Shown: piece after piece, positions 7,838 to 64,000 of the stretch
Layout of the letters: each line of letters begins with the position of its first letter
How positions within the stretch are numbered: the first letter of the stretch is position 1
DNA from: an uncultured Verrucomicrobiota bacterium
GTDB taxonomy: Bacteria; Verrucomicrobiota; Verrucomicrobiia; Limisphaerales; UBA8199
DNA length: 64,000 nt
Assembly (NCBI GenBank): GCA_964631605.1
Contig: CAZVYG010000014.1
Location: 13,446 to 77,445, forward strand
Reading direction: 5' to 3'
The notes under the pieces: model-generated
Told to the model about the DNA's origin: nothing
Database searches by the model: none
The model's input: only the letters and a program-made list of their open reading frames with translations
Program-made: the position numbers and the translations under genes

Positions 7838-9646
7838 TTACTGGAACCGGTAATTCCACCGGCGGTTGGGCGCGCTGTCGCCGTTGACACCCAGCTCGGA
7901 CACCTCGCCGAAACTCTGCACGTTGTCCGCCCAGTGAAAATCAAATGCCGGCGCCTTTCCTACGTCCTGGCCCACCGCCTTGCGCGCCAGGCTCAACTCC
8001 ATCCCGTTGCCGTTGACGCGGTACTCGGCCCGTCCAACCGTCTGCCAACTGCCGGCCCGCCAGGCTTTCACCGTGGTCTCGGTCTCTCCCGGCACCTCGA
8101 GGTTGATGATAAAATCGTACCCGAGCCAGCCGGTGCCACCGTTCTGGTCGGCATCCAGGAGCAACAGCATCCAGTGCGGATCCGTTCGCGGAGTGATCCG
8201 CTCCCGCGTCTGAACGAAAAAGAACAGCCGGCGGGCGTCATAGGCCGCTTTGGCAATCACAAAATCGTTGCGTCCCGTATCGTTCCGATACACCACGCCG
8301 CCGTAGCCCGGGTGCTCCCGGTGGATGGTGTCGCCGATCGTGTCCCGGTACTCCGGCGCCACCCCCCGCCAGTCTTCGAACTCGCCGTCAATCCGAATCC
8401 GGCTCGGGCCCGGCGATGTGGGCGGCGGGCGGACGCCTTTGAACCGGCGCACATAGCCGGCCAGTTGATAATAGTAGTTGTCGGTGTGGCCGCCCCGCAT
8501 GGGCTCGCAGTCGCGGCTGTATTCCTGCGTGTATTGGTCCACAAACAGCCCGCCAGGAAAGTAGCAATCCGCGTCGGTGTACTTGCTCCAGCGCGTGTAG
8601 CGTCCGGCGGTCCACTCATTCCAGCCGGTGACGAAGATGAACTCCGGGTCGGCCCGCAGGGCGTGTTCCCATTGCTCCGCGAAGTTCAGGCCGAGGTTCA
8701 CCGCCTCCGGGCGCGGGTCCTTGCCGCCGTCGTGCCAACTTCGCCCCATCGCCCCCTGTTTGTGGCTCATCGGCGCCGGTCCGGGCGTGTTGGGCAGCGC
8801 ATTCTGTGCCACTCCCACGCTCATCTGCTCGAGCTCGCCCACGCGGTTTGTGAACCCATGCTGCGGATGCACCTCCAGCCAGCTCCATTGGTCGGGGCCG
8901 CTCGGCCCCAGCCAGTAATCCGGCATCGGCCGCCGGAATGTAAAAAATTCCACCATTTCCGGCGCCTCAAGATATTCCTTGTTGGCCAGCAACAGAGGCT
9001 TGCCCCTCCAAAGATACCACAACTCCCGCCAAAGACCGGGGCTGTATAAATCACGCCAGAGCCGGTCCGTGACCGGTCGCGGGTCGCCGAACGGCGCGAT
9101 GAAAGCGATGGCGGGAGTGCGTGCTCCCTCGCGTCTCATGGCGGTGTATTCACGGCACAAGGCCTCGTACTGGTCCTTCCACGTGAACGGGGGATTCGTC
9201 GTGTCGAACAGGATGACGTCTATGCCCGCGTCCGCCAGCGCGCTGGCGTGCTTCCGGATCACGAAGGGGTCGGTCATGATGTAGTAGCCCAGCTCCGGTT
9301 CGCCCCAGTGATGCGGCGCGCCGTTCGCCGGCCAGGCAATCCTGCCGTCCTTCGCCGTGGCGATGAGCCGCGTGTTGTCGTTGGGCCCCCCCGACCGGGG
9401 CACATGCCACGTCCAATAGAAAATACCCACCTGCTTCCCCGGCCGCACTGGGCCACATTCTTTCCGCCCGGGAACCACCCGGCCCGCGCCATCGGTCGCC
9501 ACCCACGTGTCGGCGAACACATCCTCCCCCGCGTAAGGCCGCCCCTCGTATTGGGCTGCGGCCGTCGGCCGGCCCCCGCCAAGCATGCCCCACACGGCGA
9601 GCGCCGCAAGTAGGTTGCGCCCCCGGAACAGAAAGCTCATCGCCAT
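7838..9646 (-). CDS. secreted putative glycoside hydrolase (TIM-barrel-like, GWNEW motif) with a C-terminal beta-sandwich domain
   Basis: ORF 7838..9763. A signal-peptide-like start, MAMSFLFRGRNLLAALAVWGMLGG, lies at 9646. Motifs GIFYWTWH, DVILFDTTN and FVTGWNEWTAG resemble GH99/GH71-like families. The family assignment is uncertain. Confidence 0.55.
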   Translation of the reverse strand: MAMSFLFRGRNLLAALAVWGMLGGGRPTAAAQYEGRPYAGEDVFADTWVATDGAGRVVPGRKECGPVRPGKQVGIFYWTWHVPRSGGPNDNTRLIATAKDGRIAWPANGAPHHWGEPELGYYIMTDPFVIRKHASALADAGIDVILFDTTNPPFTWKDQYEALCREYTAMRREGARTPAIAFIAPFGDPRPVTDRLWRDLYSPGLWRELWYLWRGKPLLLANKEYLEAPEMVEFFTFRRPMPDYWLGPSGPDQWSWLEVHPQHGFTNRVGELEQMSVGVAQNALPNTPGPAPMSHKQGAMGRSWHDGGKDPRPEAVNLGLNFAEQWEHALRADPEFIFVTGWNEWTAGRYTRWSKYTDADCYFPGGLFVDQYTQEYSRDCEPMRGGHTDNYYYQLAGYVRRFKGVRPPPTSPGPSRIRIDGEFEDWRGVAPEYRDTIGDTIHREHPGYGGVVYRNDTGRNDFVIAKAAYDARRLFFFVQTRERITPRTDPHWMLLLLDADQNGGTGWLGYDFIINLEVPGETETTVKAWRAGSWQTVGRAEYRVNGNGMELSLARKAVGQDVGKAPAFDFHWADNVQSFGEVSELGVNGDSAPNRRWNYRFQ

Positions 9647-9798
9647 GCTGCCATTCTGGCCGGAGAGGGTTTCGTTGACACGAAAAAATGGAATCGAAAC
9701 GGCGTATTCCAATTGCGTTGGTCGGACGGCCAAGCCTGCCCCCCTTACAGGGGGTGAAAACACCTTTGTTGAATTGGTCCGCGGGCGGCGGGTTTGGC

Positions 9799-10008
9799 TC
9801 AGCCGCCAGCCACGATCTTGACGATCTCGAGGCGGTCGCCGCTTTTAACCTGGCGGCTGGCGAACTCGGACGGCGCCACCGCCTCGCCATTGTGCTCGAC
9901 CACCACGCTGCGCGGCGGCAGTTGTTGCCCCCGCAGGAAAGCCTCCAGCGAGCAAGGCAGTTCCGCCTCAATGATCCTGCCGTTGGCGGTGACAGTGCCG
10001 GTTTTCAT
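9799..10008 (-). CDS. thiS: sulfur carrier protein ThiS
   Basis: 69 aa with a ubiquitin-like size and a C-terminal ...RLEIVKIVAGG ending in Gly-Gly. It lies immediately downstream of thiH. Confidence 0.85.
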   Translation of the reverse strand: MKTGTVTANGRIIEAELPCSLEAFLRGQQLPPRSVVVEHNGEAVAPSEFASRQVKSGDRLEIVKIVAGG

Positions 10009-35253: not shown

Positions 35254-36939
35254 CTAACGTTTGGCCGGGCGGGTTGCCGACTTGATCCTGCCCGAGGCGT
35301 GGAGCACCTGGCCGTCGGCCAGGAGGCGTTGGCGGAGCGCCTCGTACGGCACGTCCTGCGCCGGGCACGAGCCGTCCAACGCCAGCACGGCGGCGGTGGC
35401 GGCGGACTGAGCCAGGATCATGAACACCGGCTCCATGCGAATCGAACCAAAGGCAATGTGCGACGCCGAGGCGCACACCGGCACGAGCAGATTGTGGCAC
35501 TGATCGCGCTTCGGCACCAGCGCGCCATAGGCGATCTCGTACGGACCGCCGGTGGATACGCCGATGTCACCCTCGTTTTGCACGCAGCCCTCCGGCGTGA
35601 TGTAGCGTTGCACGTTATGCGAATCAATCGTGTAGCTGCCCATGCCGACCGACTGGGGCGTGGGGCGCTTTTTCAGCAGCTCCTGCTCGGTCATCACGAA
35701 CTGGCCGATCATCCGCCGGGCCTCGCGCACGTAAATCTGGTGCGGCCAGCCGCCATTGTCCTGGAATTCATCCTTCGGCAAGCCCCAGCGGCGCATTTCC
35801 TGTTGCACGTCCACCGGCACGCGCGGGTCGTTGGCGATGAAGAACAGCCAGCCTTTTTGGTAGGCTTCGTGTTCGCGCAGGATTTCCCGGCGGCGCTCGT
35901 AGCCGGCTTCGGGATAATCGTAGTTCATCCCGATATTGTCGGTGCTGAACGGGCCGTGATTGTTGGAATCGGTCTTGCGATTCGGGATGGGATCAAATTT
36001 TTCGAAGGTCTCGCGCCAGCCTGCGTTGAAAACCCGCACGAGCACTTCGTATTGTGCGGGGTCGTAGCCCGCCGGTTTGGGCAAGGGGAGGCGGTTTTCG
36101 GGATGGTCGGTCAGGCACATGCGATAGCAATAGGCCTGCACCTTGCGGTCGCCCTGGCCATACTCGCCCGGGGGCTCGGTGCTGATGCGGGGCAGCACGC
36201 CACTGGCCGGGTTGCCGGGCACGACATACGGACTGATCTTTTGGCGAAGCACGCCGAAGTGATGCCGATGATGCAGCACGCCCGTTTGGACGCCGTTCCA
36301 GGTTTCGCCGTAAACCGCATTGGCCTCGCGCCCCACGTGATACTCCACGCCCGCCGCGGCCAGCAGGTCGCCCTCGTAGGTGGCATCAATGAACATCCCG
36401 CCCGCAAACGTCTTGCCGCTCAGCATGGTTATGGTCTGGATGCGCGCGCCAGACTTCTTGACGCCCTGGGCGCGATCCAGCCATTCGTCCCGGAACACGG
36501 GAATTCGGTGCTCGCGGACCAAATCTTCGAAAACCTGCTCGGCCACGTGCGGCTCGAAGACCCACATGGTTTGGTACTCGCCGTCAATGGCCGGGAGGCC
36601 CTGGCCTTTGTTGCCGAAGCTCTCGGGACTTTGCCAGCGCCAGGCTTCCGGTTTCTGGTAGTGCAGCCAGACGCGGTGGTAAAACTCGCGGGCCAGACCG
36701 CCGATCACGGATTTGTCCCCCGTATCGGTGAAGCCCAGTCCCCCGCTGGACAGGCCGCCCAAATGCCTGTCCGGGCACACAATCACGGTGGACTTGCCCA
36801 TGCGCGCGGCTTGGACGGCAGCGATCACGGCCGCGCTGGTGCCGCCGTAGATCACCACGTCGGCCGTGGACGGGGCGGCCGGCACGAGGGTATTTGCCTC
36901 AGTCAGCAACAACAACAAAAGGGTTCGGAGTTTCATCAA
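35254..36939 (-). CDS. secreted FAD-dependent oxidoreductase (PF12831-type, common in PVC/Bacteroidota glycan loci)
   Basis: Signal peptide followed by a Rossmann motif, DVVIYGGTSAAVIAAVQAARMGKSTVIVCPDRHLGGLSSGG. 561 aa. Confidence 0.8.
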   Translation of the reverse strand: MMKLRTLLLLLLTEANTLVPAAPSTADVVIYGGTSAAVIAAVQAARMGKSTVIVCPDRHLGGLSSGGLGFTDTGDKSVIGGLAREFYHRVWLHYQKPEAWRWQSPESFGNKGQGLPAIDGEYQTMWVFEPHVAEQVFEDLVREHRIPVFRDEWLDRAQGVKKSGARIQTITMLSGKTFAGGMFIDATYEGDLLAAAGVEYHVGREANAVYGETWNGVQTGVLHHRHHFGVLRQKISPYVVPGNPASGVLPRISTEPPGEYGQGDRKVQAYCYRMCLTDHPENRLPLPKPAGYDPAQYEVLVRVFNAGWRETFEKFDPIPNRKTDSNNHGPFSTDNIGMNYDYPEAGYERRREILREHEAYQKGWLFFIANDPRVPVDVQQEMRRWGLPKDEFQDNGGWPHQIYVREARRMIGQFVMTEQELLKKRPTPQSVGMGSYTIDSHNVQRYITPEGCVQNEGDIGVSTGGPYEIAYGALVPKRDQCHNLLVPVCASASHIAFGSIRMEPVFMILAQSAATAAVLALDGSCPAQDVPYEALRQRLLADGQVLHASGRIKSATRPAKR

Positions 36940-37332
36940 GTCGTTTCCTACGGTCTGGCCGGGTTGCCTGTTTCGAGCGCGCGCGACAGGTCCGGAAGCA
37001 CCACGGGCTCGCCCAGAACACGACCGGGGCCGGGTCGGTTTGTTTCGCCAGCGGGCATGACAAACACAGCCCTGCTCCCATCTTACATGAATGTACCCGG
37101 CCAGACCTTAACCAGGATCTCGCTGACAGACTCAAGCCTGCGCTGGCCTCAGTCAAAGCCAAAACTCGCCGGCGCAGGACGCCGAGCTCCGCGCAAATCC
37201 GTTCCCTGGTCGAGCACCCCCGAGAGCCTGCCGCCCTCGGAACTCAACGCCGCACAATGGCCGACCGTCAATCGGGCCGCCCGGAGCATCAGGACTTTAC
37301 CTGGTCCACTCCCGCCCGATAGAGTTGCAGCC

Positions 37333-38448
37333 ATGGTCGGCATCGAAAACAGCAAGCTATTCGCCGCGCTCGGGCCTGGGGAGCAACGCCGGTTGCGCCA
37401 AGCTTCCCGGGAGCAACACCACCCTCGCGGCCGGGTCATCTTCCGCGAGGGCGACCCCGGCGATGGCCTGTACCTGCTGAAATCAGGCTGCGTCGAAATC
37501 TCCGGCCTGTTGAGCGGTGCGCGCCGCCAAATCCTCTCCCGTTTCGGCCCGGGTGACGTCTTCGGTGAAATGGCGGTGATCGAAAACGCCCCGCGTTCGG
37601 CCACGGCCATGGCAGTCGAGGACACCGTGGTGGACTTCATCCCCCGCCAGGCCATGCTTGAGGCTGTCGAGCGCTCGCCGGCGCTGGCTCTCGCGCTCTT
37701 GCGGGAAATCAGCGCCCGCCTGCGCGACTTCGACCGGCAGTATCTGCGGGACGTGCTGCAGGCGGAACGACTGGCCATCGTTGGCCGATTCGCCCGCTCC
37801 ATCATCCACGACCTGAAGAATCCCCTTGCAATCATCGGCCTGGCCGCCGAGATGGTCAACCTGCCGAATGCTTCGCTCGAGGCCCGGGAGCGGGCGGTGG
37901 GCAATATCCGCGCCCAGATCGAACGGATCGGCGAGATGATCGGGGAGATCATCGAGTTCACCCAGGGCCCCCAGCCCGCCGTGGTGCTCCCCGCCATGGA
38001 TTACGCCCGGTTCACTCGAGAAGTGGTTGACGAATTGCGCCCCGAAGCGGCGCTCAAACGGGTCACGCTCGAGCTCGACGCCGGCGCCGATCCTGTTCCC
38101 GTACGACTGCATCCCAAACGCCTGCGCCGCGTCTTCCACAACCTCGTGCACAACGCCACCGACGCCATGCAGGGCGGCGGCGTCATCCGCGTCCGCCTCC
38201 AGCTCAAACCGGCGGAAGTGGTCACCGAGGTGGAGGATACCGGCCCGGGCCTTCCGCCTGAGATTCTCGGCCAATTGTTCGAGCCCTTCGTCACCCACGG
38301 CAAAGCGGAAGGCACCGGCCTGGGGCTTTCAATCTGCCGCCGCGTGATTGAAGAACATGGCGGCTGGATTGCCGCCCGCAACCTGCCGGACCGCGGCGCG
38401 GTCTTCTCGTTCGGCTTGCCGCGGCCCAAGCCGGAGGCCGTATCATGA
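37333..38448 (+). CDS. cyclic-nucleotide-binding-domain sensor histidine kinase (soluble)
   Basis: Belongs to the long ORF 35299..38448, whose first 2 kb is antisense to the FAD oxidoreductase and was rejected. The ATG is at 37333. The cNMP-binding fold reads GRVIFREGDPGDGLYLLKSGCVEI...FGEMAVIENAPRSATA. The H-box is FARSIIHDLKNPL, and a HATPase_c domain follows (HNLVHNATDA...DTGPGLP...GTGLGLSIC). Confidence 0.8.
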   Translation: MVGIENSKLFAALGPGEQRRLRQASREQHHPRGRVIFREGDPGDGLYLLKSGCVEISGLLSGARRQILSRFGPGDVFGEMAVIENAPRSATAMAVEDTVVDFIPRQAMLEAVERSPALALALLREISARLRDFDRQYLRDVLQAERLAIVGRFARSIIHDLKNPLAIIGLAAEMVNLPNASLEARERAVGNIRAQIERIGEMIGEIIEFTQGPQPAVVLPAMDYARFTREVVDELRPEAALKRVTLELDAGADPVPVRLHPKRLRRVFHNLVHNATDAMQGGGVIRVRLQLKPAEVVTEVEDTGPGLPPEILGQLFEPFVTHGKAEGTGLGLSICRRVIEEHGGWIAARNLPDRGAVFSFGLPRPKPEAVS

Positions 38449-57626: not shown

Positions 57627-58982
57627 GTGAACACGGAGTTGACGCTCGGCGTCCTTCGCGACACACTGCCGACGATGGCAGCAGCGACGTACCAGGAAAT
57701 CCAAGATTCACTCCGGCAGCTCTATCTTGAGGACGCCCGTCCCTGGCTTGTCGGCTTCAGCGGGGGCAAGGATTCCACCTTGGTAGCTGCGCTGGTGTTC
57801 GACGCCATCCTGTCCCTTCCGCCGGGGCAACGCACCAAGCCCGTTACTGTTCTTTGCACCGATACGCGGGTGGAAATCCCGGCCATTGCCGAGGGCGTTG
57901 AGAGCACGCTGGAGCGGATGCGCCGGTGCTCTGAACGCGAGGGACTCAACATCGAAGCCCACTTGCTCAAACCCCCGCCCGAACAATCCTTCTGGGTCAA
58001 CATTATCGGGCGCGGCTACCCGCCGCCCAACCGCAGCTTTCGCTGGTGCACCCAGCGCCTGAAGATTGACCCGGTCACAAGCTTTGTGCAGAAACGCCTG
58101 GGCGGCGGCCACTGGAGCGAAGCCATCCTGCACCTCGGTGCGCGCCGCGCCGAAAGCTCAACCCGCGCGCAGACCATGGCCGGTCGCGAGAAACGCAACG
58201 GCCTCAACCGGCATCCCGATCTCCCACGTGTCTGGGTTTCTAACCCCATCGAATTCCTCACCACGGAACAAGTCTGGGCCTATCTGCTCCAGAAACCGAA
58301 TCCCTGGGGCGGCGACAACCGCCCGCTATACAAACTCTACGCCAGTGCCGCCAACGGCGAATGTCCCATCCAGATTGATACCAGCACGCCCAGTTGCGGC
58401 CACTCCCGCTTCGGCTGCTGGACCTGTACGGTTGTTGACCGCGACAAAGCCAGCGAGGGTCTCCTCGCCGCGGGCGATGAACGCATGGAACATCTCATCG
58501 AGTTCCGCGAAACCCTTCGGCTCTACCAAGACCCCGCCAACGGCAAACGTGACCCCAAGCGCAAGAACGGCACCGACGGCCCGGGTCCCCTCACCATCGA
58601 GGCCCGCCGCGAACTGCTCGCCATACTGCTCAGGCTTCAGGAGCAGGTGGGCTTTCCCCTCATCAGCGACGACGAACTCTTTCTCATCCAACAATTCTGG
58701 AGAAGCGCGCGGCGACCGGACGATGGCGGCGGCGTCGCGCGCATCGTCACCCGCCAGAAAGGCATCCTTATGAGCGACTGGAAAGAGACCAACCGGCTAC
58801 GCGAACTTCAGGAGGAAGTCGCCGCAGAAAAAGGCATCCGTGCCGACACCTTGCGTCGGCTGCTGGCCAAAGTGGATGAATACAGCGAAAGCCACCGCGC
58901 CTTCGGCCTGCCGGATGACCTACTCAACATCCTCAAGGACGATTTGGAACACGAGCAGGAGGAGGGAAAGAAGAATGCCTGA
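57627..58982 (+). CDS. dndC: DNA phosphorothioation sulfurtransferase DndC (PAPS-reductase/ATP-pyrophosphatase fold, Fe-S)
   Basis: P-loop PWLVGFSGGKDST. It also has RWCTQRLKI and the Cys cluster CPIQIDTSTPSCGHSRFGCWTCTVVDRDKA, which is characteristic of DndC. The start is GTG 57627 or, perhaps more likely, ATG 57675 (MAAATYQEIQ). Confidence 0.85.
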   Translation: MNTELTLGVLRDTLPTMAAATYQEIQDSLRQLYLEDARPWLVGFSGGKDSTLVAALVFDAILSLPPGQRTKPVTVLCTDTRVEIPAIAEGVESTLERMRRCSEREGLNIEAHLLKPPPEQSFWVNIIGRGYPPPNRSFRWCTQRLKIDPVTSFVQKRLGGGHWSEAILHLGARRAESSTRAQTMAGREKRNGLNRHPDLPRVWVSNPIEFLTTEQVWAYLLQKPNPWGGDNRPLYKLYASAANGECPIQIDTSTPSCGHSRFGCWTCTVVDRDKASEGLLAAGDERMEHLIEFRETLRLYQDPANGKRDPKRKNGTDGPGPLTIEARRELLAILLRLQEQVGFPLISDDELFLIQQFWRSARRPDDGGGVARIVTRQKGILMSDWKETNRLRELQEEVAAEKGIRADTLRRLLAKVDEYSESHRAFGLPDDLLNILKDDLEHEQEEGKKNA

Positions 58983-61035
58983 AGTTTACATTGATTCGCT
59001 GACGGTGCGCAACTTTGGCCCTTATTACGGCGAGCACACATTTAACTTCGCAACCCACGATGACCGCTGCGGCATTCTTATAGGTGGGAAGAACGGAGCC
59101 GGCAAGACGCATCTTCTTCGTGCGTTGTATTTGGCGGTCGTCGGTGAAACCGGTGTCCACGACTTGAAGAAAGTTGAACCGTCTTCGGAAGCGACACGCT
59201 TTGCCTTCGACAAATCATTGAACCGGCGCGCGGAGGCAGAGGGTGATTTTAATACACTGCTTCAGGTTACGATTTCACAGCGTGACGACAAGGGCACAAG
59301 AAAGGCGATGTTGGTGCGCGAAATTCGCCACAGGCCAAACTCCGCACCGGTTTGGCGCTCATACGCTGAGCGCTTTGATGGTTCAGGGCGCATCGAGGAC
59401 GAAAAACATCTCGAAGCCCTTCGAGATGCGTTCCTACCCCGTCACTTGGCGCGGTTCTTCTTCTTTGATGCTGAGCGCGGACAGAATTTCAATCTCGGCC
59501 AACAAGAGATTGTCGAGGGCATCAGCCGCATTCTGGGTCTGTGGTCTTACGGCGAACTGGAAACCGACTTGAGGCAACTAATTCAATCGAAGATTCAGCG
59601 AACTTTCAACACCGCCGAAGGCCATGAGGCGGCCAAACGTCTGGCAGAAATCACCGGGCAGATTGTGACCGCCGAAAAGCAACTAATCAATCTTCGCGAG
59701 GAGTTAAGCAGCTTGGCCGTTGAATTGTGTGAAGCACAGAATGAGTTGGCAGAGGTTGAGGAGCGCCTTAAAAGCTTGGGTGCAGTTGACCCGACACAGT
59801 TGCAGCGGGCACAAGAGGAACGCGCGAAGCTAGCTGAGACAAAAGCCAGGCTCGAAGCTGAGTTAACGGCGGTCTGGGAAACGGCCATGCCGCTGGCCTT
59901 GCTTGGAAAGTATCGCAAAGAATTCCACGATTACCTCCTCCGCGAGGAGAAGCGCAGAGAGTGGGAAAATAGCAAAGCGACGGTCGAGCCAAAAATCCCG
60001 CAGGTGAAGTGTGACGTATTTGAAAATGCTCCATCAGAGTTTCGTCTCGCAGACGACGCTTTCGCTTTCTACACGGATCGTCTCGAACGCGCCTTGCATC
60101 GCTTGTTCCATCCGCCGCCAGAAGGTATGGCAGACAGCGTTTACGCGACGGATAGAAACGACCGAAGCGCACAAATCCGGGCACAACTTTCTTCCGGCAC
60201 AACTTCATTGCGTGCCATTGCGGAGTTATGTGCCCAGGTCGAGTCAGTAGATGCGAATCTCCGGAAGTTGGACACCCAACTAAAGCAGTTGAAGCAGGAT
60301 GCCGCAGCGGTAGAGATCGGCCAGCAGTTGCACGCTGACCGGGGCCGGTTGACCGAACAATGCGCAAATCTGGAGCGCCGGAAATCGGAGCTCAAGTCAC
60401 AAGTCGAGTCCCTCGAATCAAAACTGAAAGAACTCAAGCGGGAGGAATCCAATCTCACCACTGCCGCCTCTAAGGCCCGGCAGGGACAAACATTGATTTC
60501 TCTGGCGGCTCGATATCGCGAGGCCGCAACCGAGATACGCGCTCGCGCTGCCGACCAGTTGCGCCGTCAGATTGGCGAGCATGTGGGCGAGCTTTGGGTC
60601 GAAATTACCGAGCGCCGGCATGAGTTCCTAGGAATGGATTTCGACAAGAACTGGAATTGCTTCCTGCTTCGCAAGGATGGAAAGAGGGATACATGGGAGA
60701 ACACCAATACCTCTGCGGGACAGCGGCAGGTGCGAATGCTTGCGTTCTACGAGGCGTTGCGTCGTCTTGCAAAACTCGCGCCGCCCCTCGTCGTAGACAC
60801 GCCGTTAGGTAGACTAGACAACGAAGTGAAGGATTCCGTCCTTCATCAGCTTTACTTGACCGGCCACCAAACAATCATCCTGACGACGAACTCGGAGATC
60901 GATCCGGAAGGTCCACTGTTCGAGGAAGTCGCGGAGAGGCTTGCGCGAGTTTACACCTTGCATCCCCGCGGGAGGGAGGAAAGCATCAACTACGAAGTCG
61001 AAGTCACGAACGATTATTTCGGGAGAACAGTATGA
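58975..61035 (+). CDS. dndD: DndD-like SMC/ABC-type ATPase (DNA sulfur modification protein DndD)
   Basis: 686 aa. The N-terminus is IDSLTVRNFGPYYGEHTFNF with Walker A GGKNGAGKTHLL. A long coiled-coil middle region follows. Then come the signature-like SAGQRQVRMLAFYEAL and the DndD-typical Walker B/D-loop PLVVDTPLGRLDNEV...IILTTNSEI. The ATG at 58975 overlaps the dndC stop codon by 8 nt. Confidence 0.8.
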   Translation: MPEVYIDSLTVRNFGPYYGEHTFNFATHDDRCGILIGGKNGAGKTHLLRALYLAVVGETGVHDLKKVEPSSEATRFAFDKSLNRRAEAEGDFNTLLQVTISQRDDKGTRKAMLVREIRHRPNSAPVWRSYAERFDGSGRIEDEKHLEALRDAFLPRHLARFFFFDAERGQNFNLGQQEIVEGISRILGLWSYGELETDLRQLIQSKIQRTFNTAEGHEAAKRLAEITGQIVTAEKQLINLREELSSLAVELCEAQNELAEVEERLKSLGAVDPTQLQRAQEERAKLAETKARLEAELTAVWETAMPLALLGKYRKEFHDYLLREEKRREWENSKATVEPKIPQVKCDVFENAPSEFRLADDAFAFYTDRLERALHRLFHPPPEGMADSVYATDRNDRSAQIRAQLSSGTTSLRAIAELCAQVESVDANLRKLDTQLKQLKQDAAAVEIGQQLHADRGRLTEQCANLERRKSELKSQVESLESKLKELKREESNLTTAASKARQGQTLISLAARYREAATEIRARAADQLRRQIGEHVGELWVEITERRHEFLGMDFDKNWNCFLLRKDGKRDTWENTNTSAGQRQVRMLAFYEALRRLAKLAPPLVVDTPLGRLDNEVKDSVLHQLYLTGHQTIILTTNSEIDPEGPLFEEVAERLARVYTLHPRGREESINYEVEVTNDYFGRTV

Positions 61036-61415
61036 ACATCAAAAGCTGGTGGGATTACGCGGAGTATCATCATGAGACCGGATTAGACCGGACTGACCGT
61101 GCGTCTGCTTGGGAAGAGCGGAGTTGTGTCGCCCGCGTCATGCGACTCGACCACAGTGGCGAGGACCGCTTTTATGTCGCTCCAGCAAACGACGGATCAT
61201 GGCACGCGTGGGGTGATTGGCACGCGCGCGTTGATGGCCGGAACGACTCCAGAGCAACTGTGATATCTGGGGAGGCGGATGACGCGACCTACACTCTCGC
61301 TAACGGAGGCGCGCATTTCCCAAGTCGCGAGGTGGCGATGCTTGCCATCTACCGCTGGATTCACCGCGACTTTGAATTGGACTTGCAGAACCCGAAAGCC
61401 AAGCTCGCCGTATGA
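61032..61415 (+). CDS. hypothetical Trp/His/Asp-rich 127-aa protein inside the dnd-like operon
   Basis: Both ends overlap neighbouring genes by ATGA (61032-61035 and 61412-61415), which implies translational coupling. The sequence contains MNIKSWWDYAEYHHETGLDR...DGSWHAWGDWHARVDGRND. No family recognised. Confidence 0.6.
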   Translation: MNIKSWWDYAEYHHETGLDRTDRASAWEERSCVARVMRLDHSGEDRFYVAPANDGSWHAWGDWHARVDGRNDSRATVISGEADDATYTLANGGAHFPSREVAMLAIYRWIHRDFELDLQNPKAKLAV

Positions 61416-62899
61416 AATTCAAACCGAGCCTCGCTGCCGAGGAATTTATTGAATCTGTTCACCAGCGCGTTGGCGCGCGAACCAAAGCAGTGTTGAGCCG
61501 GTCAGCGTTGTTGCTCGCCATTGGCGAGGGCGTGCCGGCAGGTTTCAAGCCAGCGGATTCACAGGGCAAAGACTTGGACGATGAAAACGTCATCGGGGAT
61601 GAATTGCGCGACACCGTGCGGGCGGCGTTGAATCATCGCGCGGGCAAAGCGTTGGACGAGTCCGGCTACCGGACAGCTTTCCGCCAGCACTTCGAATACG
61701 GCTGCAAGCGGTTAAAGGAGATTTGGGATGAAGCCGGCGGTGACCAGACACGCTTCGTCGCCTCGCTGCTGAAAATCGCGGGCGAAGACTTCACCGGCAC
61801 AGGTGGATTCACTGCCCGTGTCCAGCCGCTTCCGGTGGTTGAAAAGGAAGTCAAACTCAAGGTGCTGAACGACGCGCCTGAATGGTCGGTCAACGGCCCA
61901 GGCACAAATAACGGCTTGCTGGTGATTTCCGGCCAGCCTGGTAGCGGCAAGAGCCAACTCGCGCTTGATTTGCTCGCGCAACTCACCGCCTACGGCGTCC
62001 GGTTCGTATTCTTCGACATGAAGGGTGAGTTGGAAAACGATCCCAACAACTCGCAGCAGAGCCAGACTCGCGCCCGGTTTCTGCACCAGACGGGCGCGGA
62101 CTATGTCCGGCTCGTCCGCCAGGATTTGCCCATCAATCCGCTCTATCACGATGCGAATCCGGCGGTGAACGCCCAGATCGCCAACGAGATCGCTTCGCTC
62201 ATCCGCTGTTTCGCCCCCCAGTTGGGCGCGAACCAGCAGCAGGCCATCAGCGATGCTTACCAAAACCTGGCCACGCCGGATTTTCCTGGGCTGCTGATGG
62301 AATTGCAGCAGAGCGGCGTCTCTGGCGTGCCAGTGGCACTCATCCGCCGAATCGTGGATTACAATTTGTTCGCGTCCGCGCAGACGGCCGTCAGCCCGGA
62401 GCAATGGCTCCGGCGTTCGCTGGTGATTGATTTCAAGGAGTTCGGCAACGACAGCGAAACCAAGGCCCTCGCGGTCGCGCTAATCCTAAATTTCCTGATC
62501 AAGAAGTTGAGCCAGCAACTCGCGGTGAAAAATGACATCCAGCCGCTCAAGATGGTGCTGTTCGTGGACGAAGCGCATTTGTTGCTGCCCAAGGAGAGCA
62601 AGGCCGGCCTGCTCAGTTCCCTGGCGCGGCAGGGTCGGTCGTGGGGTTTCCCCGTCTGGCTGGCGTCGCAGGATGCAGACAAGTTCCTGACTACCGGCAC
62701 GAACGAAACCAATTTTGCCCAACTCGCCGAGTGCGGGGTCCACTTCTCGCCGCAGACGCTAAGCCCCGCGGACCAAAAGAGCGTCCTCGGCAGCTTGATC
62801 AACCAGAAGTTCAAAAAGGCGGAAGCCGCCTTGTGTCAACGCGCCAAGCTCCAAACCACCGGCCCGGCCCGGCAGTTTTGGAAGGATGGAGGAAAGTAG
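61412..62899 (+). CDS. fusion protein: DndE-like N-terminal domain plus FtsK/HerA(VirB4)-type P-loop ATPase
   Basis: Residues 1 to about 125 follow the DndE pattern (KPSLAAEEFIESV...LSRSALLLAIGEG...DSQGKDLDDENVIGDEL...FRQHFEYGCKRLKEIW). The ATPase has Walker A LLVISGQPGSGKSQLALDL, Walker B MVLFVDEAHLLLP and an Arg-finger/sensor region LARQGRSWGFPVWLASQDADKF. The DndE-like call is pattern recognition only. Confidence 0.6.
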   Translation: MKFKPSLAAEEFIESVHQRVGARTKAVLSRSALLLAIGEGVPAGFKPADSQGKDLDDENVIGDELRDTVRAALNHRAGKALDESGYRTAFRQHFEYGCKRLKEIWDEAGGDQTRFVASLLKIAGEDFTGTGGFTARVQPLPVVEKEVKLKVLNDAPEWSVNGPGTNNGLLVISGQPGSGKSQLALDLLAQLTAYGVRFVFFDMKGELENDPNNSQQSQTRARFLHQTGADYVRLVRQDLPINPLYHDANPAVNAQIANEIASLIRCFAPQLGANQQQAISDAYQNLATPDFPGLLMELQQSGVSGVPVALIRRIVDYNLFASAQTAVSPEQWLRRSLVIDFKEFGNDSETKALAVALILNFLIKKLSQQLAVKNDIQPLKMVLFVDEAHLLLPKESKAGLLSSLARQGRSWGFPVWLASQDADKFLTTGTNETNFAQLAECGVHFSPQTLSPADQKSVLGSLINQKFKKAEAALCQRAKLQTTGPARQFWKDGGK

Positions 62900-62910
62900 A
62901 AACCAACAGC

Positions 62911-63462
62911 ATGAAAATTCCATTCAAACGAATCTGGTCGGAAAAGCGATATGATCTGAAGCATTGGCTCTTTTACAACTTGCTTATCAGCCTCTCGCCG
63001 ATTTGGTTGTCGTGCCTGTTTCTGGCTTTTGGCAAGGTTTTCCGATTCCTTGATCCTTTCCTCGACGGGAGGTTGCTCATATTCACCGCAACGTTGAGCG
63101 GTGCTTCCATGAACTTCTTCGTTACAGATACGAAGCTGAACCTTCGTAACACGGAGCGATTCCTTTTCAACGGGTTGCTTGCCGCCATCTTCCTCGGTGC
63201 GGGCGGTTACACAGCGATTGTCACTCTGAACCAATTCTCACCGGGGGCGCTATGGTCGCCTGTGGTTGTGCTTACAACTATCATCGCCTTGGGGCTCGCA
63301 GTTTACTTCAACCTGTATCTCGCAGGCGTGCGCAGCGTTTACACGGATCAAGAGTTGATGCGAAAATTGATCGAAGAAGAACAAGACGTGCTGGTGAAGG
63401 AGAAAAAGGTCTTGGCTGAGACGGCTCGGACTGCGAGCGAAGTAGACGGAGCGAGACTATGA
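62911..63462 (+). CDS. 4-TM membrane protein with a charged C-terminal helix, in the dnd-like operon
   Basis: 183 aa. The ATG at 62911 is 11 nt after the upstream stop codon. Four hydrophobic spans are visible (WLFYNLLISLSPIWLSCLFLAF; LLIFTATLSGASMNFFV; FLFNGLLAAIFLGAGGYTAIVTL; VVVLTTIIALGLAVYFNLYLAGV). The tail reads ELMRKLIEEEQDVLVKEKKVLAE. The stop codon overlaps the next ATG (ATGA at 63459-63462). Confidence 0.6.
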   Translation: MKIPFKRIWSEKRYDLKHWLFYNLLISLSPIWLSCLFLAFGKVFRFLDPFLDGRLLIFTATLSGASMNFFVTDTKLNLRNTERFLFNGLLAAIFLGAGGYTAIVTLNQFSPGALWSPVVVLTTIIALGLAVYFNLYLAGVRSVYTDQELMRKLIEEEQDVLVKEKKVLAETARTASEVDGARL

Positions 63463-64000
63463 ACGGCAACAGTGGCCAGACCAACGGTTCGATTGACATA
63501 AAGGTTCTGGAGGTTGCTCAACCTTTGGGAACATTTTACGTCGGCGTAATGAAAGCCAATGACCTGCGAAAAATCGCCGCCGCGGACACCCGCCGCCAAG
63601 AACAGCGCGAAGTAGAAATCTACACAGGCATCCAACGTGAGCTTTCCAAAAAGAGGCAGGCGGAGATCAAAGACTACATTTCGACGTTCGACGCCGCGTT
63701 CCCGAACTCCTTTATTATCGCAATTAAGGCCGAAGATGTATTGAGCCAAGACGGAGGAGTTCTAAGAATCCGCTCGCATGAGAAAGCGGCAAGCATAATT
63801 GACGGACAGCACCGTCTTGCCGGGTTCACCGAATTTAACAGCGATAACTTTGAGTTGATTGTCTCCATTTTCATTGATTTACCCATCGAAGACCAGGCGA
63901 TGTTGTTCGCCACCATCAATCTCAAGCAGACAAAAGTCAGCCCTTCTCTCGTTTACGACTTGTTTGAGGAAACGAAGTTGAGGTCGCCTCAGAAAAGTTG
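63459..64000 (+). CDS. DGQHR-domain (DndB-like, ParB-fold) protein, truncated by the window end
   Basis: The literal motif IIDGQHRLAG is at residues about 113-122. Upstream lies LGTFYVGVMKANDLRKIA and downstream FATINLKQTKV, as in the DndB/DGQHR families. The frame is still open at 64000. Confidence 0.8.
   Translation, partial: MNGNSGQTNGSIDIKVLEVAQPLGTFYVGVMKANDLRKIAAADTRRQEQREVEIYTGIQRELSKKRQAEIKDYISTFDAAFPNSFIIAIKAEDVLSQDGGVLRIRSHEKAASIIDGQHRLAGFTEFNSDNFELIVSIFIDLPIEDQAMLFATINLKQTKVSPSLVYDLFEETKLRSPQKS

Follow-up and report, generated by a model that had tools for sequence, protein, structure and literature searches.

This report concerns a stretch of 64,000 nucleotides (nt; the window) from an uncultured Verrucomicrobiota bacterium (contig CAZVYG010000014.1), in which six tightly packed plus-strand open reading frames (ORFs; g1 to g6) run from position 57627 to beyond position 64000. 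These genes very probably form a DNA phosphorothioate (PT) writer operon of an already known type, the DndEi type, of which the locus would be a new member. Predicted DndC and DndD proteins are accompanied by a protein that joins a DndE domain to a HerA/FtsK-type ATPase (DndEi), and a gene for a cysteine desulfurase (dndA) lies just past the window. On balance, the whole locus is read here as such a writer with two accessory elements, namely a rare small protein (g3) and a pair consisting of a putative membrane protein and a DGQHR protein (g5-g6), the latter possibly serving as a surveillance/effector arm.

The predicted phosphorothioate-writer operon

The product of g1 (dndC) passed the TIGR03183 model (365.4 bits against a cutoff of 290.4), was matched by the PADLOC profile for DndC at E = 2.5e-121, and contains SGGKDS at residue 45 and the Cys-rich FGCWTCT at residue 262. 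It is 60-86% identical to its counterparts in 45 related loci. For g2 (dndD), the PADLOC match to DndD (E = 1.8e-65) was slightly better than that to PbeC (E = 6.5e-61), and a Walker A motif (GAGKT) and a D-loop motif (DTPLGRLD) were found at residues 41 and 608. No CxC motif (zinc hook) was found in g2, which, of the clades distinguished in PMC10853773, points to DndD more than to CxC/PbeC. In g4 (dndEi), a DndE domain was detected at residues 3-103 (PF08870, 29.7 bits against a cutoff of 25), followed by an ATPase region (residues ~160-460) with AAA_10 and HerA_C (27 vs 22) matches in Pfam, a Walker A motif (GQPGSGKS) at 174 and a Walker B motif (VLFVDE) at 382. Further matches of g4 were to the C-terminal HerA/FtsK region of DndH (E = 3.2e-15) and to mad8 (E = 2.5e-16) in PADLOC, and to the HerA-like YjgR (E = 1.6e-5) and DptH (7es4, E = 5.9e-3) among PDB sequences. 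At E <= 1e-5, 721 homologues of g4 were found; the 120 listed are 69-93% identical and nearly all full-length, several carry the source name 'DndE family protein', and PF08870 was precomputed on most of the matches listed. By architecture and neighbourhood, g4 is a predicted DndEi-type protein.

Direct reading of the junctions showed an 8-nt overlap between dndC and dndD, ATGA overlaps at 61032, 61412 and 63459, and a spacer of 11 nt between dndEi and g5 (62900-62910, AAACCAACAGC). A previous sequence-only reading of this DNA had described six plus-strand genes with these overlaps and this gap as one tightly coupled unit; the ORF listing of the window and the junctions agree with it. Its assignments of DndC, DndD, DndE-like and DGQHR proteins also held in profile searches (NCBIfam, Pfam and PADLOC), and all four DndC and DndD motifs that it had regarded as diagnostic were found. 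Internal promoter- or terminator-like signals in the operon did not rise above chance in a signal scan; a single transcription unit would agree with this result but is not proven by it. Likewise, nothing above chance was found 5' of dndC when that region was scanned for promoters, terminators and operators. The annotated start of dndC is the GTG at 57627 (region 57627-57680), which lacks an obvious Shine-Dalgarno sequence, and alignments with homologues begin only near residue 17; the assignment of this start codon is uncertain, and translation may truly begin about 45 nt downstream. The guanine-plus-cytosine (GC) content is about 0.66 in flanking housekeeping genes and 0.49-0.62 in the six operon genes, and this drop marks the locus as a horizontally acquired, lower-GC island.

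Contig Ga0394875_0000561 (JGI) continues 2.5 kilobases (kb) past the window end (window position = L001 position + 51411). The desulfurase gene found there is convergent with the operon, lies 0.56 kb past the window end and has a stop codon that overlaps that of g6; a host SDR-family (short-chain dehydrogenase/reductase) oxidoreductase gene comes after it. In PADLOC its product matched DndA (E = 3e-143) and SspA (E = 5e-142), and the nearest NCBIfam family was NifS. The statement in the sequence-only reading that neither dndA nor a restriction partner lies within the window is thus literally true, but dndA adjoins the window end. As for restriction partners, no DptFGH, PbeABCD, Ssp (SspE-H) or sulfur-binding domain (SBD)-HNH proteins were found among the six genes, the downstream dndA and SDR genes, 10 kb of upstream sequence, or the ten longest other ORFs of the window. 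One of the window's ORFs (35299-38448, plus strand, 1049 amino acids (aa)) has a TIR-domain match at residues ~698-813 (PADLOC PycTIR, 2.6e-11; TIR effector, 8e-11), and it might be a defence gene without relation to the dnd island, which lies about 20 kb further downstream.

Table 1. Genes of the operon and its neighbour, in window numbering, and loci of related gene arrangements, in the numbering of each locus
Feature	Position or loci	Strand	Product or remark
g1, dndC	57627-58982	+	451 aa
g2, dndD	58975-61035	+	686 aa, counted from the ATG at 58975
g3	61032-61415	+	127 aa, W/H-rich putative accessory protein
g4, dndEi	61412-62899	+	495 aa, predicted DndE domain and HerA/FtsK-type ATPase
g5	62911-63462	+	183 aa, small protein with about four predicted transmembrane segments
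g6	63459 to beyond 64000	+	DGQHR protein; 180 aa inside the window, 366 aa in full
dndA (cysteine desulfurase)	~64556-65773 (L001 13145-14362)	-	405 aa, outside the window
DGQHR and ~330-aa protein cassette	L034, L035, L041, L052, L054, probably L023, L051, L015		
GHKL and Methyltransf_35 cassette	L005, L008, L011, L014, L016, L032, L037, L044, L050		
Methylase, g5-like, g6-like trio without dnd genes	L089 4603-7040, L097 7536-10053, L072 7610-10083, L087, L090, L093, L096, L102, L104, L106, L110, L111		

The fusion of DndE with an ATPase had been listed in the sequence-only reading as a departure from known systems; it has already been described as DndEi (PMC6435447, PMC10853773). The review PMC6435447, citing Zheng et al. 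2016, describes DndEi in Riemerella anatipestifer, Flavobacterium indicum and Kordia algicida and reports the helicase/ATPase activities of the R. anatipestifer protein as essential for PT, while Bacteroidales examples are given in PMC7464106. As in those clusters, one polypeptide with an N-terminal DndE and an ATPase/helicase is encoded here beside dndC and dndD, together with a desulfurase of the DndA type. The hosts are different (here Verrucomicrobiota, Nitrospirota, Acidobacteriota and similar), and the likeness is one of architecture and neighbourhood. No description of g3 or g5-g6 was found in the accessible literature on DndEi clusters. Exactly the architecture and neighbourhood of g4 are seen in the 'clade-3' HerA/FtsK domains, which are fused to DndE beside a DndD-related ABC ATPase (Rakesh, Aravind and Krishnan 2024, PMC10853773, section 22), and g4 matches the HerA/FtsK region of DndH/DptH as that clade implies. 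That paper takes up neither small proteins encoded between dndD and dndEi nor any membrane partner of a DndB-like gene, and it uses 'membrane' and 'transmembrane' only in unrelated contexts. With the classical dndA/dndBCDE systems of Streptomyces lividans and Salmonella Cerro 87, the locus shares its predicted chemistry, DndA, DndC, a predicted DndD, a DndE domain and a DGQHR-family protein. In contrast to them, DndE is fused to an ATPase, an extra small gene separates dndD from dndE, dndFGH is absent, and the DGQHR gene comes last, is no DndB equivalog and has an obligate transmembrane (TM) partner.

A neighbourhood survey, in which one genome per GTDB species was scanned, identified 62 loci, 50 of them with a full-length DndEi. 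The genes dndC, dndD and dndEi are colinear in 47 of these 50 loci; dndA is present in 32 of the 41 loci that have at least 3 kb of downstream sequence, with 30 of the 33 copies found running opposite to the operon. From these counts, the conserved module is dndC-dndD-(slot 1)-dndEi-(slot 2)-dndA, with dndA convergent. The layout, which the sequence-only reading had set apart from known loci, is common in public genomes: the 47 colinear loci are joined by a full seven-gene set in the cultured verrucomicrobium Phragmitibacter flavus (L070; GCA_005780165.1, VAUV01000008.1 at about 204-212 kb). According to their record titles, the loci come from Verrucomicrobiota, Planctomycetota, Nitrospirota, Acidobacteriota, Thermodesulfobacteriota/'Deltaproteobacteria', Binatia, Lentisphaerales and a Burkholderiaceae genome. 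DndEi is 57-83% identical across about seven environmental phyla, and such high conservation implies active horizontal spread. Among PLSDB plasmids, no DndEi homologue was found beyond one weak ATPase match.

Several individual loci deserve mention. Near-identical dndEi loci were found in metagenome-assembled genomes labelled Klebsiella pneumoniae, Bathyarchaeia and Bifidobacterium (L015, L026, L053), which are more likely to be binning contaminants than true hosts. In L068 (6109-8004) and L069 (1849-3744) (GCA_031425655.1), dndD is split, and a gene for a ScoMcrA-type SBD joined to an HNH nuclease replaces its N-terminal half; the remaining C-terminal DndD fragment has 303 aa and is 54% identical to residues 388-686 of g2. 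A PT-reader nuclease is thus encoded inside a PT-writer operon. In L029, a homologue of this SBD-HNH protein is encoded downstream of the TM-DGQHR pair.

Small proteins between dndD and dndEi

The sequence-only reading had drawn attention to a W/H-rich 127-aa protein of no known family after dndD, and three libraries (Pfam, NCBIfam and PADLOC) indeed contained no match for g3, which has 7 W and 7 H among its 127 residues. An exhaustive HMMER search found only five small homologues among 1.84 billion representatives. The homologue P0137 occupies the same slot and overlaps the dndEi start in L068 and L069, and so does a more distant one in the P. flavus locus (33% identity), which shares the motif WYAWGDW. 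A Foldseek comparison of the AlphaFold2 (AF2) model of g3 with PDB gave no match (best E = 0.79). The g3 family is very rare and appears to be undescribed within the literature and libraries available here.

In most of the related loci, slot 1 is a gap of 0-30 nt. In 14 loci, it contains a conserved 78-93-aa protein with an 'HSTLDWQTR' motif (e.g. L004 9736-10011), a family without a match in any library; an alternative small protein thus fills the g3 slot in about a third of the related loci. A natural fusion of the two families was also found: residues 1-84 of P0138 belong to the HSTLDWQTR family (E ~1e-25) and residues 102-200 to the g3 family (E = 3e-30). This Rosetta-stone fusion, together with the constant translational coupling to dndEi, suggests that g3 is an accessory of the DndD-DndEi complex. 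A functional tie between g3 and DndEi is therefore likely, and the protein would serve that complex as a regulator or as a small accessory subunit.

An analogy is offered by the PbeB-type small protein of CxC-ABC/PbeABCD systems (PMC10853773, section 16), which is likewise small, fast-evolving, unannotated and encoded within an ABC-ATPase/DndE operon, and which has been proposed to be a regulator. No homology between the two was detected, however. In addition, g3 is predicted to be partly folded (predicted local distance difference test (pLDDT) score of 65.6) and not mostly disordered, and its gene is located between the ATPase and DndE genes.

The g5-g6 pair and its alternatives

A simple Kyte-Doolittle scan of g5 indicated 3-4 hydrophobic segments, in line with the four-TM protein noticed earlier from the sequence, followed by a charged C-terminal tail. 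No match to g5 was found in Pfam, NCBIfam or PADLOC, and its close relatives amount to only 16 clusters among 5.8 billion proteins. Profile comparison also revealed distant homologues (hhalign, 97.3% probability; HMM scores, 25-52 bits), and every g5 homologue adjoins the start of a g6-type gene. The extreme C-terminus of the family is conserved, ending in (E/K)VDG(A/V)(K/R)L or GV(K/R)(V/L) before a stop codon that overlaps the DGQHR start codon (window 63440-63462, and L028, L066, L067, L070, L073, L076 and L077); this conservation may reflect the protein, a translational-coupling signal, or both. The GC content of g5 is 0.504, and that of the g5-g6 pair (about 0.50) is the lowest of the island, compared with 0.54-0.62 for the dnd genes.

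The stop codon of g6 is about 559 nt beyond the window end. In full length, g6 passed TIGR03187 (205.7 vs 58.85 bits), and its fragment inside the window passed PF14072 (55.7 vs 29.1). Its DGQHR motif is at residue 115, and this motif and R175-x6-H182 are invariant across 35 homologues. No match of the full-length protein to the DndB equivalog TIGR03233 was found at E <= 1e-3, and the 180-aa fragment reached 16 bits against 328. Thus, of the DGQHR/DndB-like last gene proposed earlier, the DGQHR family and the last position were confirmed, but g6 is not a DndB equivalog. It also remained below the DpdB cutoff (90.1 vs 300 bits; PADLOC DpdB, E = 5e-28) and lacks an SspE-type EHxxP or [DE]HxxP nickase motif. 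The AF2 model of g6 reached a pLDDT of 81.3, with weak structural matches of the N-terminal domain to ParB, PadC and Srx (E ~0.7-1). Accordingly classed by profile and model, g6 is a predicted DGQHR-domain, ParB/Srx-fold nucleoside triphosphatase (NTPase) protein. Its R-x6-H pattern may fit a HEPN-like motif, as a candidate only; DndB was reportedly called 'ParB + HEPN' by Makarova in 2013. DpdB of the Dpd 7-deazaguanine system and SspE of PT-sensing restriction are similarly ParB-fold DGQ(H/Q)R NTPases serving DNA-modification systems, although neither has a TM partner.

Slot 2, between dndEi and dndA, was found in four states. The arrangement of the window, with a small protein followed by a DGQHR protein, is present in 18 loci. 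In 5-7 loci, a DGQHR protein of ~360 aa is followed by a conserved ~330-aa protein without a match in any library. Nine loci carry a GHKL ATPase of ~455 aa (HATPase_c_3, with weak MzaB similarity) and a PF20553 'Methyltransf_35' protein of ~333 aa (E = 1e-100), neither of which is in PADLOC. Something else or nothing is found in the other 16 loci, in two of which (L017, L022) dndA directly follows dndEi.

The small partners 5' of DGQHR genes also vary, comprising g5-type four-TM proteins, C6 four-TM proteins, one-TM coiled-coil proteins and soluble C4 proteins. The DGQHR partner of the C6 family passes TIGR04172, 'DNA phosphorothioation-associated DGQHR protein 1' (454 vs 450 for the L010 member), and in such loci (e.g. 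L010) the DGQHR gene likewise comes after dndEi with a four-TM protein before it. On the same model g6 scored 206.7 bits against the cutoff of 450, and therefore represents a different subfamily. Distant homology between g5 and C6 was considered, but the hhalign probability was 0.3%, so that the two TM partners are analogous and not homologous. The soluble C4 partner (168-197 aa; L012, L019, L020, L026, L027, L038, L043) shows a GVY...YxG...R...E...N pattern. Its identification as a GIY-YIG nuclease was unsupported, as Pfam, PADLOC and NCBIfam gave no match and a PDB profile search gave only noise.

Pairs of the g5-g6 type occur in other dndEi loci (L028, L046, L067, L070/71, L073/74), as well as in L066, where the pair and the dnd genes run towards each other, and in L076, where the pair lies between dndD and dndEi. 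Directly upstream of the pair in L066, a 140-aa PF27807 'DNA_S_mod_dnd_assoc_4' protein is encoded (9401-9823). Genes for ResIII/Helicase_C and AAA_13 proteins are close by, so that L066 represents a further variant of PT-associated neighbourhoods.

The g6 family as a whole comprises 870 matches, and below about 50% identity the dnd context is lost. A tight operon of a D12-class methyltransferase, a g5-like and a g6-like gene was found in L072, and g5-g6-type pairs were found in an island with SIR2-HerA and an AlwI restriction-modification (R-M) system (L075) and beside a BglII/MT-A70 R-M system (L079). When metagenomes and IMG/VR were scanned with the g6 alignment, 25 loci could be evaluated. 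A D12-class N6-adenine methyltransferase directly flanks the pair in 14 of them (in three, L090, L096 and L104, the adjacency was set by hand from coordinates), 3 are dnd loci whose g6-type proteins share 51% or more identity with g6, and the remaining 8 have neither. The co-directional order methylase, g5-like, g6-like was seen in at least 11 loci, shorter contigs included, and three such trios were confirmed by Pfam. Six loci are on viral-classed contigs; the IMG/VR copies with a flanking methylase are L160-L165.

From this distribution, g5-g6 would be a separately acquired, co-inherited pair and a separable module. As its relatives are coupled to Dam-type N6-methyladenine (m6A) methyltransferases, it looks like a generic companion of DNA-modification writers. 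The pair appears to be undescribed within the literature and libraries available here.

Possible roles of the pair

In the reading that is favoured on balance, the NifS/DndA-like desulfurase would supply persulfide sulfur, which DndC (PP-loop/Fe-S) would take and place on the DNA backbone, while DndD and DndEi would provide ATP-driven site recognition and DNA opening, with the DndE DNA-binding module of DndEi joined to a HerA/FtsK-type motor. The g6 protein might act as an NTP-dependent DNA clamp that samples DNA and, on DNA without the host mark, would act through its membrane partner g5 to cause growth arrest or exclusion. An effector role of the pair is proposed tentatively. The pair couples to whatever writer it accompanies, is dispensable for that writer and uses a non-homologous, interchangeable partner, and these features are typical of the discriminating/effector half of modification-based immunity. 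Two related ParB-fold NTPases of restriction systems, SspE and GmrS, are modification sensors (PMC10164549, PMC4619093). PMC10853773 also casts doubt on DndB being a repressor and nothing else; it raises the possibility that members of the DndB family are effectors, the options given being a repressor, an NTP-depleting effector and a nuclease.

Several points weigh against this reading. At the level of the writer, PT in this organism is a prediction from genes; g2 aligned end to end with TIGR03185 but below equivalog level (174.7 bits vs a cutoff of 245.85), and the desulfurase was below the TIGR03235 (DndA) cutoff (372.4 vs 480). As for the effector role, its evidence is gene context throughout. 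No homology of g5 to any known pore or effector was found, g6 has no recognisable nuclease motif, and the C-terminal domain of g6, although modelled at pLDDT > 90, had no structural match. To our knowledge, the only characterised members of PF14072 are DndB, a repressor, and DpdB, a modification helper. Specificities would have to have diverged if a single family were to read both PT and m6A, and adjacency to complete R-M systems (L075, L079) could be mere defence-island clustering. Being tightly coupled to writer genes in translation, g5-g6 could just as well be a regulator.

Such a regulator is the closest rival, a possible but rather doubtful one. The pair would be a DndB-type negative regulator, possibly membrane-tethered, in a stand-alone epigenetic/antioxidant PT system without a defence arm; the DGQHR protein would bind nucleotide and DNA and limit dndC-dndD-dndEi transcription or activity, resulting in a sub-saturating PT density. 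Membership of g6 in PF14072/TIGR03187 places it in the DndB superfamily, and Salmonella DndB represses dndBCDE, its loss doubling PT (PMC4507180). DndB is found in only 52% of Dnd taxa and is therefore accessory, like the optional cassette here, and most Dnd modules lack DndFGH (PMC10853773). Co-translation with the writer would also suit an autoregulatory loop. However, g6 has no match to TIGR03233 even in full length, and its gene is last and not first in the operon. No DndB-type operator (TACGN10CGTA) is present 5' of dndC, where short repeats were no more than chance would give, the sole match in the window being inside g4, although this is a weak test, as the motif is known only for Salmonella. 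A repressor leaves the obligate membrane partner unexplained, and a PT-operon repressor makes little sense beside Dam-type methylases, on prophage-like contigs and in defence islands, where the pair also occurs.

It is improbable that g6 is instead a DpdB-like helper, that is, a DNA-stimulated ATPase that loads or assists a modification enzyme (the PT writer or a Dam-type methylase) and is localised by g5. DpdB is the best-scoring characterised relative of g6, DpdA depends on the ATPase activity of DpdB to insert preQ0 (PMC10164549), and both DpdB and g6 lack the SspE nicking motif; coupling to two different writers would suit a generic helper. The score of g6 is nevertheless far under the DpdB cutoff, D12 methyltransferases normally act alone, and the membrane partner is again unexplained. 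Moreover, the DGQHR cassette is absent in 16 of the 50 dndEi loci, including the two with dndA directly after dndEi, so that the writer does not need such a helper. An effector is thus favoured over a DndB-like regulator, and the latter over a DpdB-like helper.

The alternative raised in the sequence-only reading, that the last four genes (g3 to g6) together form a reader/effector module on a minimal dndC-dndD writer, is very improbable. In its favour, all four are translationally coupled, and the restriction protein DndH/DptH has a HerA/FtsK domain to which the ATPase of g4 is related. Against it, g4 holds the only DndE domain of the locus, which every Dnd writer needs, accompanies dndC-dndD in 47 of 50 loci whatever lies downstream, and is of a type reported as essential for PT writing (PMC6435447), while g3 tracks g4 and not g5-g6, and g5-g6 occurs without g3 or g4. 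Of that proposal, g3 and g4 are therefore assigned to the DndD/DndE writer, and only g5-g6 is separable, its pairing with Dam-type methylases supporting the reader/effector idea for these two genes.

A further extension of the effector reading, which we regard as rather unlikely at present, is that g5-g6 is an autonomous two-gene 'non-self' arm for any attached writer, a Dam-type m6A methylase in most metagenomic and prophage-like copies and DndA/C/D/Ei in the subclade of this locus. If true, such loci would be minimal R-M-like or abortive-infection systems that use a membrane protein as the effector in place of a nuclease, and DndB-family proteins in general would be sensors or effectors and not mere repressors. 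The true role of these DGQHR/ParB-fold proteins is an acknowledged open question (PMC10853773). The compact methylase-TM-DGQHR trio, the obligate membrane partner and the exchange of PT for Dam-type writers make the options for the family testable, and the cultured P. flavus carries the PT version of the locus. In addition, g3 and the HSTLDWQTR protein suggest that DndD-DndEi complexes have a fifth component that has gone unrecognised, and DndEi-type PT writers are shown to be widespread and highly conserved.

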